Positions 26,720 to 31,244 of a DNA stretch of 64,000 nt are shown piece after piece. Source of the DNA: a virus (Duplodnaviria; Heunggongvirae; Uroviricota; Caudoviricetes). A program made the position numbers and the translations under genes. The notes under the pieces are model-generated. The model did not search any database and was not told where the DNA came from. It saw only the letters and a list, made by a program, of their open reading frames with translations. The DNA is taken from positions 1 to 64,000 of the IMG/VR virus record IMGVR_UViG_2740892219_000010, one strand, 5' to 3'. Position 1 is the stretch's first letter; each line of letters begins with the position of its first letter.

Positions 26720-26968
26720 CTCTCTCAGTCCAACAGTCTTTCGAAGGCCTTGATCAAAGGGCCTTGATAAATTAGCAGTGCGTTGAAAACAGATAGTTAT
26801 TCCCATCAGTTCCAACGTAATACACATCAAAAAAATCACCATTCTTTTGCTCTAACGTCAACACCTACTCTTAAAAAAATAATTCTCCAAGAATGAGAAA
26901 GTTATTGTGTGTATTAGATAAGATATGAGCTGACACATCTATGGCGTGGAGCCAAATTTAATATGACA

Positions 26969-26992
26969 GTCCGCTCTGTGCCAGGAGCGGAC
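26969..26992 (+). repeat. structured repeat family, partial copy R0
   Basis: GTCCGCTC-TGTGCCAG-GAGCGGAC hairpin matching the 3' hairpin of R1-R3. Confidence 0.6.
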
Positions 26993-27306
26993 GTTGTAAA
27001 GTTTATTTGGAGAATAATGGTTAGAAGAACTATGTAGATCATAGCCCTCTAAAGTCAGTAGTTTTACACCATATAAATGGTCATTTAGAGATAGTACACC
27101 ACCTACAAAAAACGAGATAAAGCGTGCAAGCGGCATGAAGATACATAAAATACTCCATTCTGCACTTGATGTTAGGATGAATACTGACACTCGCTTTGTA
27201 AAGATAAAGATGATCTTGAGGATGATTAGTTTATTAATTATCTCCAATGTTTGTTATTTTGTGATGATAAAGATTCTCTGGATTAATAGGATGGTAATTC
27301 AATTAA

Positions 27307-27335
27307 AAGAGACCTTATAGAAGGCCTCTTTTAAG
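27307..27335. terminator. hairpin terminator downstream of the 27357-27734 gene
   Basis: AAAAGAGACCTT-ATAG-AAGGCCTCTTTT, near-perfect inverted repeat flanked by A/T runs. Confidence 0.45.
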
Positions 27336-27356
27336 TTATGAGAGCTGATTTTATAT

Positions 27357-27734
27357 TCAATAGAGTATTCTCATCGAAGAAATAACCTCATAAAATGTAA
27401 AGACAGCCAGCAAAAAAATACAGATAAAGATAAGGGAAATAGCACACTTAACTAAGGACTGAATCCCCCGAGGTGTTCCCCATGGTTTAGACATTTGGGT
27501 TATAACCCAAATAAATAAGGCCATAAAACAGCAAACACCAGCCAATCCGAGCAGAGATATTATGACAACTCCAAATAGATTTCCAACATCTAGTTTATCT
27601 GTTTTTGCAACTAGGGTTAACAAACCAGCAATAATAGTTGCTATCGATATTCCCGCAATGGTTGTGAGATCAGCGATAACAGCCAGTTTTTCTTTAGTAT
27701 TTCCTTGAGTAAAAACCTCTAAAATTGATTTCAT
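27357..27734 (-). CDS. small integral membrane protein (cargo cassette 1)
   Basis: 125 aa, 3 predicted TM helices, RBS AGGTGG; AT-rich codon usage unlike the phage backbone. Confidence 0.6.
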   Translation of the reverse strand: MKSILEVFTQGNTKEKLAVIADLTTIAGISIATIIAGLLTLVAKTDKLDVGNLFGVVIISLLGLAGVCCFMALFIWVITQMSKPWGTPRGIQSLVKCAISLIFICIFLLAVFTFYEVISSMRILY

Positions 27735-27847
27735 GGAAAATAACCACCTACTATCGATTATATTCAGGAACTTTTTATCATAACGATATCAGATAGATAA
27801 GGATATTGTAATATTTTGGATGATTTAAACTTACTTTTGTAACTCTA

Positions 27848-27915
27848 ATGTCCACTTTTCGCTCACAGCGGACCTTTAGCTCAGTTACCTCGTCCGCTTT
27901 GTGCCAGGAGCGGCC
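27848..27915 (+). repeat. structured repeat unit R1
   Basis: ATGTCCACT...CGCTCACAGCGGAC...GTCCGCTTTGTGCCAGGAGCGGCC; two tandem hairpins sharing stem GTCCGCT/AGCGGAC; in a divergent intergenic region. Confidence 0.7.
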
Positions 27916-28176
27916 GCTAACCTGATTGACGGGAAATCATATTAAGTCGGCATAAAAAATTAGAATATCTTTAGTGACTATTACTAATGTGTGTGTATAA
28001 CTTATGCCTAATTTATCGCTCCGGCTGAGGGAATCTTGCCTCCGCTGTCACTTTTAGGTATGTTAACAACTATTTTTACAGTGGTTCCGAGTTATGCTAT
28101 CTAACAGATTACTTGAACCGAGTCCGTTTATCAGTATGGCGTTTTATATGCTCAGAGTCCATCCAAGGAGTGACTT

Positions 28177-28653
28177 TTGAAATTTGAACAAATCTATAAA
28201 AATATTACTGGCCTTAGCTGTCCCATATTCGGGATTCAGTGGAATGCTCCAATAATAGAAACTGACGAAGCGAAGAAGTTCGTCATTTTTCTTGAGGACA
28301 AGCGCGTTCTTTTCAATCCTGTCGACATGGAGGGTGCTAGTCATTGCACTTCGAGTGTTATCAACATTAGATCTGAATTGACTAAAGTCCTACAAGGTTT
28401 GCCGAGCGATTCACATTTAGCAAAACAATTAAGGAAAATGAGAAAAGCATGCCAAGAATTCTGTGACAGCGTTGGCTCCCCTCACTTTATCCAACTTGAT
28501 CATCCTGTTCAAATATCCATACTTGAGCGAGCCCTTTTTAAACTGCGACAAAAGTGTGGTAACTCTCTGGCAGAAATAGCGGTTACCTATGGTCTTGATG
28601 TTGATGACGGATTGGCCAGTATTATCCCTTTTAATAATCCCAGTAACATATAG
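28177..28653 (+). CDS. hypothetical soluble protein (cargo cassette 2)
   Basis: 158 aa, TTG start with RBS AAGGAG 6 nt upstream; no recognised family. Confidence 0.5.
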   Translation: MKFEQIYKNITGLSCPIFGIQWNAPIIETDEAKKFVIFLEDKRVLFNPVDMEGASHCTSSVINIRSELTKVLQGLPSDSHLAKQLRKMRKACQEFCDSVGSPHFIQLDHPVQISILERALFKLRQKCGNSLAEIAVTYGLDVDDGLASIIPFNNPSNI

Positions 28654-28746: not shown

Positions 28747-28816
28747 ATGTCCGTTCATCGCTCACAGCGGACCTTCAGCTCAGGTAACTTGTCCGCTTCG
28801 TGCCAAAAGCGGACAT
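28747..28816 (+). repeat. structured repeat unit R2
   Basis: ATGTCCG...CGCTCACAGCGGACC...GTCCGCTTCGTGCCAAAAGCGGACAT; outer 7-bp inverted repeat ATGTCCG/CGGACAT; in a convergent intergenic region. Confidence 0.7.
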
Positions 28817-28933
28817 GTCAAAGCGCAGAGTGAATGGCTAAGTCTAGCTCATTAAAAATGTTCACTTCATGAAAATGGCTGCAGCAAGAATCTATCTCAC
28901 TGCGGCCTCTTTACAATAACGAAATTTTGCAAG

Positions 28934-29689
28934 CTATTCCTTGGCCTCTTTATTCTTCTCGCCATCGCCAATATAAATAAGATAGTCGTTTAAGGATATC
29001 CTTCCGGAGGGACCGGTCCATGTTATCAATCCGTTTTCACGAAGATTAAATAATGCTTCCATGAACTCATTATCGTTAAAAGAATGATCTTCTGAGAACA
29101 GAATGTTCATTTTTCTCAATAGTTCTTCCACTTTAATCTTTTCATATCGCCTTATCAGACTTAGTGCTCTACGACGCATTAAGACTGTAGGTACTGCTTG
29201 TGAACGAATGGTTTTTTGTATTCCACTATCAAGAACTTTCTTAATCTTACTCTCTAATTCTTTGATTTTAGTTTCATTATCTCCATTGGACTTAAGCTTT
29301 TCATCAACGATACAAATAATCTCCTGACTAATGCGGTTCTTGAGTTTGTTTATTTTTTCTTCATTGTTGAGGATCTCATCAGAGCTTCCTGCATGGGGTT
29401 TTTTCCATATGTGCTGACGCATATCCGTTACCGTATCTCTCATCATAGAGAATGTATCTGAATATAACTTGTCAAATATTTTTTCCAGTCGTTCGACACT
29501 TGCCTGGATGTCTTTTGCTGCTTTAGTTGTCTCTTTAGAAGCCTCATTCGACATTTTATAAAAAACAAAAGAAAGCCAAATAGCCCCAATGGCGAGTACT
29601 AATGAGGCTATTGTGGCAATAAAACCTATTATTGTTATTGCTGTATCTAATGTACCTGCTGCATCTGTGACTACTGTTTCTGCTGCCAT
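28934..29689 (-). CDS. membrane-anchored coiled-coil protein (cargo cassette 3)
   Basis: 251 aa; RBS GAGGA; N-terminal hydrophobic segment (IIGFIATIASLVLAIGAIWLSFVFY), Lys/Glu-rich coiled coil, C-terminal globular region. Confidence 0.6.
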   Translation of the reverse strand: MAAETVVTDAAGTLDTAITIIGFIATIASLVLAIGAIWLSFVFYKMSNEASKETTKAAKDIQASVERLEKIFDKLYSDTFSMMRDTVTDMRQHIWKKPHAGSSDEILNNEEKINKLKNRISQEIICIVDEKLKSNGDNETKIKELESKIKKVLDSGIQKTIRSQAVPTVLMRRRALSLIRRYEKIKVEELLRKMNILFSEDHSFNDNEFMEALFNLRENGLITWTGPSGRISLNDYLIYIGDGEKNKEAKE

Positions 29690-29972
29690 ATATCCTCAAT
29701 ATTTAACCATACAGGGTAGCGTGTTTTAACCGCGGGGAAGTCGGGGTGGTGACACCCTGGCCTTACCCCAATTCCAGAGTATTTGTTTATCATACCATTG
29801 AAACTATTTAATTTTATCGAAAATTTTGTCAGAGCGTGACTGAAAAGTCTTCAGCACGTCAAGCAGATCGTCGCCGTTCAATTAGCACTGAACTTTTTCT
29901 TAGTGGGGGGCTGTGCAGTTGCGAAGTTATGCCCCAGTTCCTCACTACATTCTAATTAAGCCGGCCAACTAA

Positions 29973-30036
29973 ATGTCCGCTCCTCGCTCACAGCGGGTCT
30001 TCAGTTGTTCGTCCACTCTGTGCCAGGAGCGGACAT
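29973..30036 (+). repeat. structured repeat unit R3
   Basis: ATGTCCGCTCCT...AGGAGCGGACAT: perfect 12-bp outer inverted repeat enclosing CGCTCACAGCGGG and GTCCACTCTGTGCCAG; in a divergent intergenic region. Confidence 0.75.
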
Positions 30037-30149
30037 TGATTATTCCTCACTGTAAAAATCTTAATGCTAACTAGTGGGAACTATAAGTTGTCAATTGACA
30101 TAATTGTGTATATTTTGCGATTTAAATGTTAAATTTTAGGTGTCGTTAT

Positions 30150-30953
30150 ATGGATGTTAATGAATTTCCACCGGGAGTAATCGAGCATCTTGGCTGGTAT
30201 GTCTACCGCCTGATTGACCCGAGAGATGGTAGTACGTTCTACGTAGGGAAAGGGAAAGGTAATCGTGTCTTTGCCCATATGCGCGGTGAGGTTGCTGCAG
30301 TGGATGATGATGAGTTACTGAGTAACAAACTCAAACAACTTCGGGAGATCAGATTAGCTGGTCTTGAAGTTATCCATGTTATACATCGGCACGGTATAGC
30401 TGAAGAAAAGACGGCTTACGAAGTTGAAGCAGCACTCATAGACGCCTATCCCGGCTTGACTAACATCATGAACGGTGCTGGCAGTAACGAGTTCGGTGCT
30501 GCACACATCAAAGAACTAATCGCTACGTACCAACCTGAAACAATTACGTTCCAACATAAAACCCTAATGATATCGGTTAACAGGAGCTCAAAGGATATTG
30601 ACCTCTATGATGCTGTACGTTTTAGCTGGCGTGTCAGCCTTGAACGCGCTCGTAAGGCAGAGGTCATACTGGCGACAGTAAGAGGAATTGTGAGGGGTGT
30701 ATATATCGCAGATGAGTGGCTCAAGTCTACCCGTGAGAATTTTCCAGAGATACCATCATGGGATGCGGATGATGAATTTGAAGCTACGCAAAGTTCCCGC
30801 TTTGGGTTCCGGGGTAGGGCTGCACCTCCTGAGATTACACAGCTTTATTTAGGTAAGAAGATCCCTGATGATCTCAGAAAAAAAGGTGCTATGTCTCCTG
30901 TGAGATATTCTCCCGGATTTGATTTCGGAATGGAACTGGATTTTAGATCGTAG
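30150..30953 (+). CDS. GIY-YIG domain nuclease-like protein (cargo cassette 4)
   Basis: 267 aa from ATG 30150; N-terminus [28 protein letters not shown] fits the GIY-(~10)-YIG motif with downstream Arg; ~170-aa C-terminal region unclassified. Confidence 0.6.
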
Positions 30954-31170
30954 CCAATATATGGCAGTAATGAATATTTCGGGGATCGTGTTTGCTGCGG
31001 TCATGGTTACCATTAGCAGAATAAAACTTGTGAAGGGACGTATCAAACTAAGGATGCTATGTGCGGTAAAGTTTCAATGCAGGGAACAGATGCTGAAGTC
31101 AAGAAAATGGTCGATTGCCAGACGCAAATGACCCTTTCAAGAATCGCTTTCCTCAGAAACCAATAACTGA

Positions 31171-31205
31171 AGTTTCCTTCAAGCTGGCGCCAGGTGTTAA
31201 CCTGG
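31171..31205. terminator. hairpin (candidate terminator/insulator) at the right edge of the cargo array
   Basis: AAGCTGGCGCCAGG-TGTTAA-CCTGGTGCCAGCTT, 14-bp inverted repeat with one mismatch, followed by T-rich sequence. Confidence 0.4.
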
Positions 31206-31244
31206 TGCCAGCTTAGTCATCAAGTGCATATTTAACTGTTTTAT

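Follow-up and report, generated by a model that had tools for sequence, protein, structure and literature searches.

We analysed a 64,000-nucleotide stretch of a tailed-phage genome (Caudoviricetes; IMG/VR record IMGVR_UViG_2740892219_000010, positions 1 to 64,000; hereafter the window), focusing on an AT-rich insert in a lambdoid-type prophage. The original prediction, made from the letters of the window, had described the four genes of this insert as a candidate undescribed four-gene accessory or defence locus. We found that the region is instead a cassette hotspot module of the type known from the Z/fun region of P2-like phages, transplanted into a lambdoid prophage. Its four single-gene units are joined by a repeated pair of related hairpin sites, which we call A and B.

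The hotspot is flanked by ImmA/IrrE and a 201-amino-acid membrane protein gene on one side and an ORF6N gene on the other, with replication genes beyond. The guanine-plus-cytosine content was 0.400 for the insert (26720-31234) and 0.381 for cassettes 1-3, compared to 0.493 for the whole window and 0.498 and 0.488 for the 20-kb flanks. Comparison with related Escherichia coli prophages showed that those with the same flanks hold different cargo at this position. Both results agree with the original view of foreign-composition cargo at a variable site. All four open reading frames (ORFs) proposed earlier were present, in the orientation -, +, -, +, and direct reading of the sequence confirmed a Shine-Dalgarno-like motif 5' of each start codon. 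The four cassettes are as follows:

26993-27847, minus strand: cassette 1, with a gene at 27357-27734 (minus) for a 125-amino-acid protein with three hydrophobic segments (PHROG 4155)
27920-28746, plus strand: cassette 2, with a gene at 28177-28653 (plus) for a 158-amino-acid soluble protein (PHROG 29952)
28819-29971, minus strand: cassette 3, with a gene at 28934-29689 (minus) for a 251-amino-acid protein (PHROG 36054)
30039-31015, plus strand: cassette 4, with a gene at 30150-30953 (plus) for a 267-amino-acid GIY-YIG protein, PD-T4-3

A Kyte-Doolittle scan bore out the topologies that had been read from the translations. The three segments of the cassette-1 protein were recovered, the soluble 158-amino-acid protein had none, and the 251-amino-acid protein had one, at its N terminus, which is followed by long helices. 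The 267-amino-acid protein of cassette 4 also had no hydrophobic segment. For the cassette-3 protein, an alignment of homologues together with an AlphaFold2 model of modest confidence (predicted local distance difference test score 69) suggested an N-terminal transmembrane helix, a juxtamembrane helix, a variable coiled coil and a C-terminal winged helix. A Foldseek search of this model against the Protein Data Bank returned only weak generic winged-helix matches (E >= 0.02). The family comprises 352 homologues, none of them named, which range from Enterobacterales to Betaproteobacteria and include one Methanoregula record; near-invariant in its juxtamembrane part are R67, L68, E69, F72, D73, Y76, D78, T79, F80, M82, M83, T86, V87, D89, M90, R91, H93 and W95. 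Downstream of the cassette-1 gene lie a perfect 14-bp hairpin (27303-27334) and, over about 360 very AT-rich nucleotides (26993-27356), short overlapping ORFs only, for example one of 102 amino acids without a family match (26939-27247).

Profile searches were made against PADLOC and Pfam. The product of gene 4 matched the PADLOC model for PD-T4-3 (PDLC04031; E 1.5e-137, 455 bits), with residues 1-255 aligned to positions 1-254 of the 256 in the model, and the GIY-YIG-like domain noted earlier matched Pfam PF22945 (LEM-3_GIY-YIG; E 7.3e-13, above cutoff). Judged by these matches, the gene of cassette 4 is the known defence protein PD-T4-3, which we take to work as a single-gene system and which would act as a GIY-YIG nuclease. 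Nothing notable differs in sequence; what differs is the genomic context, here a lambdoid prophage array. The validated systems of the source paper, a functional selection (Vassallo et al. 2022), include a GIY-YIG nuclease. PD-T4-3 may at times travel within a larger cassette: in E. coli CFSAN061769 (L003, 5064-6991; L numbers denote the loci collected for comparison), a 411-amino-acid HNH-motif protein and a 186-amino-acid hypothetical protein come directly after PD-T4-3, with no A or B site between them.

The N-terminal part of the cassette-2 protein matched Pfam DUF6650 (E 7e-16), and genes 1 and 3 had neither a PADLOC match nor a Pfam match above the cutoff. The proposal of defence cargo remains reasonable, in that gene 4 is PD-T4-3, cassettes 1-3 occur in the P2 Z/fun hotspot and related cassettes encode defence domains (see below). 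Weighing against it for the other genes, no PADLOC model matched genes 1-3, DUF6650 was their sole above-cutoff Pfam match, and no fold match was informative. A defence role for cassettes 1-3, suggested by association, is in our judgement an even call. Under such a role, cassettes 1 and 3 would serve as membrane-level exclusion or abortive-infection effectors, and the cargo of the array would provide prophage-encoded anti-phage or exclusion functions.

The repeat that separates the genes turned out to be composite. Each unit of ~70 nucleotides (nt) consists of two related 24-nt hairpin sites, A (GTCCGCTyyTCGCTCAyAGCGGAC) and then B (GTCCGCTyyGTGCCAGrAGCGGAC), with a spacer between them of 12-18 nt in the window and 10-19 nt across the family. 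The order in the window is B - cassette 1 - A~B - cassette 2 - A~B - cassette 3 - A~B - cassette 4, with all sites co-oriented:

26910-26968, plus strand: leader, homologous to P2-like sequence downstream of gene G and part of the annotated 'left inverted repeat'
26969-26992, plus strand: solo B site at the left end of the array (GTCCGCTCTGTGCCAGGAGCGGAC), a half unit; the identity to the L004 backbone ends exactly at 26992
27848-27919, plus strand: junction unit 1 (A at 27850-27873, an 18-nt spacer, B at 27892-27915)
28747-28818, plus strand: junction unit 2 (A at 28749-28772, a spacer, B at 28791-28814)
29972-30038, plus strand: junction unit 3 (A at 29975-29998, a 12-nt spacer, B at 30011-30034)

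The original prediction had placed one copy in every intergenic gap. This was slightly overstated: full units occupy three gaps and a half unit the left end, but the gap from gene 4 to the antirepressor gene has none. No good match to the hairpin pattern was found elsewhere in the 64 kb, the sole outside match having two mismatches. Unit 3 folds with -18 to -20.6 kcal/mol (z about -5.5), and since A approximates the reverse complement of B, a whole unit can fold as one long imperfect hairpin. The hairpins noted earlier are thus real, but they are the repeats and not classical terminators, because no intrinsic terminator-like site was predicted in 26600-31400. A rho-independent terminator reading was rejected on the same ground, the hairpin loops being 8-10 nt long and followed by no T tract. 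A structured-RNA reading was likewise rejected, as the sole Rfam 15 match in 26500-31500 was a chance-level snoRNA (E 0.71). A set of 161 distinct units, taken from other loci, showed >=90% conservation of the arms and of both heptamers (TCGCTCA in A and GTGCCAG in B). Past the B site of unit 2, ~12 extra bases (GTCAAAGCGCAG, 28815-28824; compared with L001 4995-5000) precede the point where the cassette-3 homology begins; they resemble a second, degenerate B-site right arm and are possibly the scar of successive events.

These sites have counterparts in the Z region of P2-like phages. The GenBank record of the P2-EC53 Z region, AJ512682.1, carries annotations of a 'left inverted repeat' (repeat_region 3-115) and a 'right inverted repeat', and sequence comparison showed that the left one equals leader plus B and the right one A plus trailer. 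Given these annotated repeats and the catalogued PD-T4-3, the locus can no longer be called wholly undescribed. Leader and B of the window are homologous to the left repeat (the stretch that follows gene G, plus the hairpin GTCCGCTCTGTGCCA...), and its A sites to the start of the right repeat (TCGCTCAAA...CAGATTTGATAGCG...). In P2 itself, the canonical fun(Z) has a B site on one side and an A-type site on the other, and cassettes 1-3 of the window are found in the Z/fun hotspot. In contrast to the P2 arrangement, the module lies between the immunity and replication regions and not between tail genes G and FI, it has four cassettes joined by composite A~B units instead of one insert between two long inverted repeats, and the P2-type trailer of the right repeat is absent from the whole window. 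According to a 2022 review (PMC8987985), Nilsson, Karlsson & Haggard-Ljungquist (2004, Mol Biol Evol 21:1) inferred site-specific exchange with bacterial genomes at the Z-region inverted repeats of P2. For leader plus B (26910-26997), identity was 77-82% with L001, L002 and L006 and reached 98% (from 26911) with L017, L042 and L053. This sequence also had 78% matches of 72 nt in 24 records of lambdoid phages that convert to Shiga toxin (Stx) production, of the Stx1a and Stx2c kinds (LC727877, LC727882 and others, at about position 3.5-3.8 kb), so that hotspots of the same kind may exist in other lambdoid groups.

Tiling by local BLAST against the collected loci resolved the window into segments of different ancestry:

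26000-26992: backbone, 98.8% identical to L004, a related E. coli prophage; the match stops with the last base of the first B site
26911-28778: leader, B, cassette 1, A~B, cassette 2 and A, 98% identical to the P2-like viral contigs L017, L042 and L053
28825-29994: 96.4% nucleotide identity to the one insert at the Z/fun site of phages P2_2H4 and 9W, where it separates tail genes G and FI
29973-31015: A~B and the GIY-YIG gene, 97% identical to L003, L015, L048 and L055
31045-32500: backbone resumed, about 98-99% identical

The joints of this mosaic fell on the sites. Nucleotide homology to L017, L042 and L053 ended at 28778, just past the A site of unit 2, and the homologies to the cassette-3 donor (L001) and the PD-T4-3 donor (L003) overlapped solely in the A site of unit 3 (29973-29994). 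The cassettes also occurred apart. Cassettes 1 and 2 were found together, without cassettes 3 or 4, in L017, L042 and L053. In these loci the array is followed by an ORF resembling a P2-type tail tube, and the cassette-1 protein was 100% and the cassette-2 protein 98.7% identical to that of the window. Cassette 3 stood alone in P2_2H4 and 9W, between tail-fibre-assembly and sheath genes, and PD-T4-3 stood beside other neighbours in L003, L015, L048 and L055. None of 5426 complete E. coli genomes held >=80% of the region as arranged here. We are therefore highly confident that the architecture is a mosaic of four independent cassettes joined at the sites, and the idea of one four-gene set or system does not hold. 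Cassettes 1, 2, 3 and PD-T4-3 had the same orientation at every recurrence. Inversion of cassettes through A-by-B recombination was thus rejected, since these recurring cassettes never flip and the clusters of mixed orientation are broad families (LysR) and uninformative.

The features that bracket the array show how the module sits in the prophage:

26114-26719, plus strand: ORF of the backbone 201-amino-acid membrane protein (PHROG 5346), with one hydrophobic segment at residues 142-165
26638-26718, plus strand: left copy of an 81-nt direct repeat (3' end of the 201-amino-acid gene), 90% identical to 31235-31315
31016-31044, no strand: deletion joint; homology to L003 ends at 31015 (L003 5045) and resumes at 31045 (L003 8246)
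31045-31166, plus strand: 3' remnant (~120 nt) of an LprI-family gene; 31045 aligns to L004 6871 inside the LprI coding sequence (6069-6992), and the stop codon TAA is at 31164-31166
31235-31315, plus strand: right copy of the 81-nt direct repeat, the duplicated 3' end of the 201-amino-acid gene
31341-32177, minus strand: backbone ORF6N-domain (antirepressor-type) gene of the right flank (Pfam ORF6N, E 9e-22), likewise annotated in L003 and L004

The module as a whole has inserted into the 3' end of the backbone membrane-protein gene, its target, and the 81-nt target duplication brackets it. The same duplication brackets the module in L003 and L004, and the 201-amino-acid protein was 99.5% identical in L004. 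A search with a joined 'empty' query, in which the 201-amino-acid gene abuts the ORF6N gene, recovered this arrangement once (GPEC172; L252, 2315-3733) among the 452 E. coli genomes that carry this family of prophages. The empty site of GPEC172 may be the ancestral state or a secondary deletion between the 81-nt repeats. At its right end the array has been shortened: compared with L003, the window is without the HNH-endonuclease gene, the hypothetical gene and most of the LprI-family gene, and no terminal A site is left on this side. In L003 and L004 the module consistently closes with the intact LprI-family (lysozyme-inhibitor-like) gene, which lies outside the part bounded by A and B.

To place the window in a wider context, we surveyed the sites across viral and bacterial genomes. 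A degenerate unit pattern occurred in 55 IMG/VR stretches and in at least 120 stretches of GTDB contigs with one genome per species. True members, with GTCCGCT arms, were nearly all from Enterobacterales (Escherichia, Citrobacter, Enterobacter, Pantoea, Erwinia, Cedecea and Brenneria). The sites of a locus lay essentially all on one strand, and the usual architecture was B-(A~B)n-A (~150 loci). Among the complete E. coli genomes, 363 of 5426 carried the unit, at one or two places each, namely in P2-like prophages, in the lambdoid family described here and in CP4-57-like islands. The 330 cassette ORFs showed no orientation bias relative to the sites (168 in the same and 162 in the opposite orientation), so each cassette gene presumably has its own expression signals. 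A set of 68 representative cassette proteins from phages and E. coli, the PD-T4-3 of the window included, contained DRT reverse transcriptases, DarT, CAP12-type TIR, HEPN, SLATT, AAA_15/21 (OLD-like ATPase) and Macro proteins. On the chromosomes of Pantoea and Erwinia, the genes bordered by these sites encode LysR, dehydrogenase, exporter and acetyltransferase proteins. Long chromosomal A~B arrays with a spacing of 0.6-3 kb were seen in L076, L097, L113, L170 and L176 (Citrobacter, Pantoea, Silvania and others), with LysR regulators, dehydrogenases, LysE/MFS exporters and GNAT acetyltransferases as cargo rather than defence genes.

Homology breakpoints, defined as the unique ends of high-identity alignments between loci, were concentrated at the sites: 126 of 331 unique ends lay <=30 nt from a site centre, whereas 200 trials with randomised positions yielded 7.9 on average and never more than 15. 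Pairs of loci that share only one flank located the switch more closely. At A sites, identity was low in the upstream flank and in 'yy' and then rose to >=0.9 from TCGCTCA, which places the switch at 9|10 (GTCCGCTyy|TCGCTCA). At B sites, identity was >=0.9 through GTGCCA and dropped at the next two bases, which places it at 15|16 (GTGCCA|grAGCGGAC). The two are mirror-image positions. The same switch was found in three P2-like phages with different cargo, and direct reading of unit 3 in the window showed a 5' arm that matches the cassette-3 donor and a remainder that matches the PD-T4-3 donor.

A candidate enzyme was found between the same two kinds of site. The gene int202 encodes a tyrosine recombinase of 200-202 amino acids that consists of the catalytic domain only, and in E. 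coli islands it is flanked by degenerate versions of the A and the B site (for example L007 6540-7260; homologues in L253-L265 and L280 from IMG/VR, and in L247-L251). All nine close IMG/VR homologues with a 5' flank had an A-type site (GTCCGCTyyTCGCTCAT-rAGGGAC) ~55 nt upstream of the start codon, and 12 of 13 close homologues had, 30 nt past the stop codon, the hairpin CAGGGCTGC-AACA-GCAGCCCTG followed by GTGCCAnnAGCGGAC. More distant homologues (59-65% identity) had a different hairpin (TAGCGACGG...CCGTCGCTA), followed by GGCCAGAAGCGGA. The downstream site was also present in contigs of Idiomarina and Pseudoalteromonas and in marine metagenome contigs, where the gene lies between resistance modules, and in Providencia int202 lies in the cargo region of a P4-integrase island. 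With more than 8000 homologues at 76-96% identity, the family spans the Gammaproteobacteria, and the gene was present in 904 of 5426 complete E. coli genomes. No solved structure was related to int202 by sequence at E <= 0.001. Because the ~45-nt core of a junction unit has the ends of the int202 element, the units look like miniature int202 elements.

These observations are best accommodated by a model of site-specific exchange at the A and B sites, probably via int202 in trans, with homologous recombination as the main rival and selfish elements as the second. A and B would be two heterospecific core sites of the tyrosine-recombinase type, each with inverted arms (AT)GTCCGCT / AGCGGAC(AT) around its own heptamer (TCGCTCA in A, TGTGCCA in B). 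Recombination of A by A and B by B, between replicons or within arrays, would insert, delete or swap cassettes, in a manner resembling recombinase-mediated cassette exchange. The likely enzyme would be int202, supplied in trans; in genomic islands its gene is enclosed by one A-type and one B-type site. For the exchange at the sites as such, we favour the model somewhat. The assignment of int202 as the exchange enzyme is more tentative and may well turn out otherwise. More tentative still, and rather doubtful at present, is the broadest version, in which A/B sites and int202 form a widespread gammaproteobacterial cassette-exchange platform, integron-like in function but unrelated to integrons, that would move cassettes, either accompanied by a junction unit or not, among P2-like phages, lambdoid prophages and islands. 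The reading as a whole, namely a transplanted Z/fun-type hotspot with four cassettes, anti-phage cargo and site-specific exchange, likely by int202 in trans, we consider reasonably probable.

Several results weigh against this reading. No tyrosine recombinase is encoded in or beside the array of the window; int202 is absent from the 64 kb and from the P2-like phage loci, which means that it would have to act in trans, and among ~95 genuine chromosomal loci of enterobacteria, chosen because they have A~B units, only a few have it at a distance of up to about 7 kb. The one-flank pairs number 11-26 per class and are not all independent, and the resolution of the breakpoints is limited because the sites themselves are conserved. 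Neither a recombination product nor a circular intermediate was found, and the local loci contained no convincing B-left/A-right fusion ('empty platform') or short 'cassette junction' palindrome. Two exact-pattern scans of IMG/VR for unrecombined sites gave 6 and 50 hits, none with the arms or flanks of the family and about as many as expected by chance for a 16-base palindrome. The right end of the array in the window is a plain deletion and not a site event. Finally, stem changes among the 161 units were one-sided, with no compensatory change, and the spacer was variable and paired no better than shuffled controls. The conservation of the units is therefore one of sequence and not of structure, and a folded-DNA substrate is not demonstrated.

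The main rival to site-specific exchange needs no dedicated enzyme. General or phage-encoded homologous recombination over the 24-70 bp of the shared units, as in the 'linker' model of phage mosaicism, could also shuffle cassettes. With units that are 80-95% identical between loci, short-homology recombination would have enough to act on, breakpoints at conserved blocks are equally expected, and most arrays lack an adjacent recombinase gene; a 2026 preprint on P2/P4 ascribes the swaps to 'intense local recombination' and names no sites. We nevertheless regard this explanation as unlikely, since it accounts neither for two distinct, strictly co-oriented site types with invariant heptamers nor for arrays that end in a solo B on the left and a solo A on the right. 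The sharp, mirror-symmetric switch points and a conserved recombinase gene that this pair of site types encloses in different orders of bacteria would equally be left unexplained.

In the second alternative the junction units are themselves selfish and the cassettes passive. A 'tyrosine transposon' resembling an insertion sequence (A-type end, int202, B-type end) and its miniatures, comparable to miniature inverted-repeat transposable elements (MITEs) or to the REPINs discussed below, would enter palindromes of the form GTCCGCTyy|rrAGCGGAC between genes. The ends shared by the 45-nt unit core and the int202 element (TCGCTCA...TGTGCCA) speak for this possibility, as do the 76-96% identity of int202 across orders, which is expected of a horizontally spreading element, and the several copies beside ordinary accessory genes in some Pantoea and Erwinia genomes. 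Random insertion, however, predicts both orientations, whereas the sites of a locus are co-oriented, and the solo B and solo A around a P2-like cassette would be inward-facing half elements that do not arise from simple insertion. Furthermore, the unit occupies one or two places per E. coli genome and is not spread genome-wide, and the IMG/VR scans found no unoccupied palindromic target with family flanks. We therefore consider the selfish-element explanation improbable.

The original prediction can be taken to mean that the four genes work together as one undescribed system for defence or abortive infection, whose regulatory or terminator signals would be the repeats. This is highly improbable: small membrane proteins and a nuclease would make a plausible effector set and all four genes do stand together in the window, but they occur apart elsewhere (cassettes 1 and 2 in three P2-like contigs, cassette 3 alone, PD-T4-3 with other neighbours), PD-T4-3 has its own PADLOC model that is matched over its full length, no complete E. 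coli genome of the 5426 holds the bulk of the region, and no terminators are predicted.

Site-specific exchange at A and B sites invites comparison with other systems of mobile gene cassettes. Integrons share with the A~B arrays the single-gene cassettes, the co-oriented imperfect palindromes of ~60-80 nt between them, the independence from a common promoter and a tyrosine recombinase candidate. According to a preprint on sedentary chromosomal integrons, their cargo is rich in defence genes, as in A/B arrays (10.1101/2024.07.02.601686). In contrast to integrons, A~B arrays end in half sites, their ORFs are free of orientation bias, and their unit ends (GTTAGCAATGTCC...GGACATTGCTAAC; GTTAGC...GCTAAC) have, on direct inspection, the opposite polarity to attC (RYYYAAC...GTTRRRY). 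Moreover, int202 is not an IntI, as it scored 15.9 bits against the NCBIfam model integrase_gron (E 0.0064), which has a cutoff of 265. Box polarity, half-site ends, unbiased ORF orientation and the lack of IntI led us to reject a reading of the units as integron attC sites.

The pdif modules of Acinetobacter plasmids, which are accessory-gene modules bounded by short inverted XerC/XerD sites, occur in many contexts and rely on an enzyme in trans, resemble the A/B cassettes in these respects. In contrast to them, A and B sites have no similarity to dif and form heterospecific pairs of constant polarity instead of alternating XerC/D and XerD/C sites. Repetitive extragenic palindromic doublets forming hairpins (REPINs) and bacterial interspersed mosaic elements (BIMEs), which are mobilised by RAYTs (REP-associated tyrosine transposases), likewise consist of two inverted short palindromes with a short spacer, and their whole unit can form a long hairpin. 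A~B units differ from them in being confined to one or two places per E. coli genome, in being co-oriented and tied to cassette boundaries, and in the associated gene, since int202 is a tyrosine recombinase and not an HUH Y1 transposase. The literature that we examined describes no multi-cassette arrays, lambdoid location, mirror-symmetric breakpoints or int202 between A/B sites. The site motifs appeared in no literature searched, and the hotspot papers of 2021-2026 among it make no mention of repeats or hairpins.

Prophage hotspots are a main reservoir of anti-phage systems. Recent large surveys of P2/P4 elements report that defence cargo is replaced extremely quickly, with unrelated prophages and cryptic islands among the exchange partners, and name no mechanism; the 2026 preprint says that the recombination by which defence genes turn over so rapidly and without pseudogenes 'still need[s] to be elucidated'. 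The window offers a compact test case, in which four ancestries are joined on a defined pair of sites with mirror-symmetric breakpoints; the gene of a candidate recombinase, located elsewhere, is flanked by the same sites. Should the proposed mechanism go unconfirmed, the locus would still show clearly that a lambdoid phage has taken up a hotspot module of P2 type. If the platform reading is true, it would supply the missing mechanism for fast defence-gene turnover at phage hotspots. If the exchange mechanism is confirmed, the sites could mark cassette boundaries and thereby lead to new single-gene defence candidates, like cassettes 1-3, across Enterobacterales, and the A/B sites might serve as a natural cassette-exchange tool.

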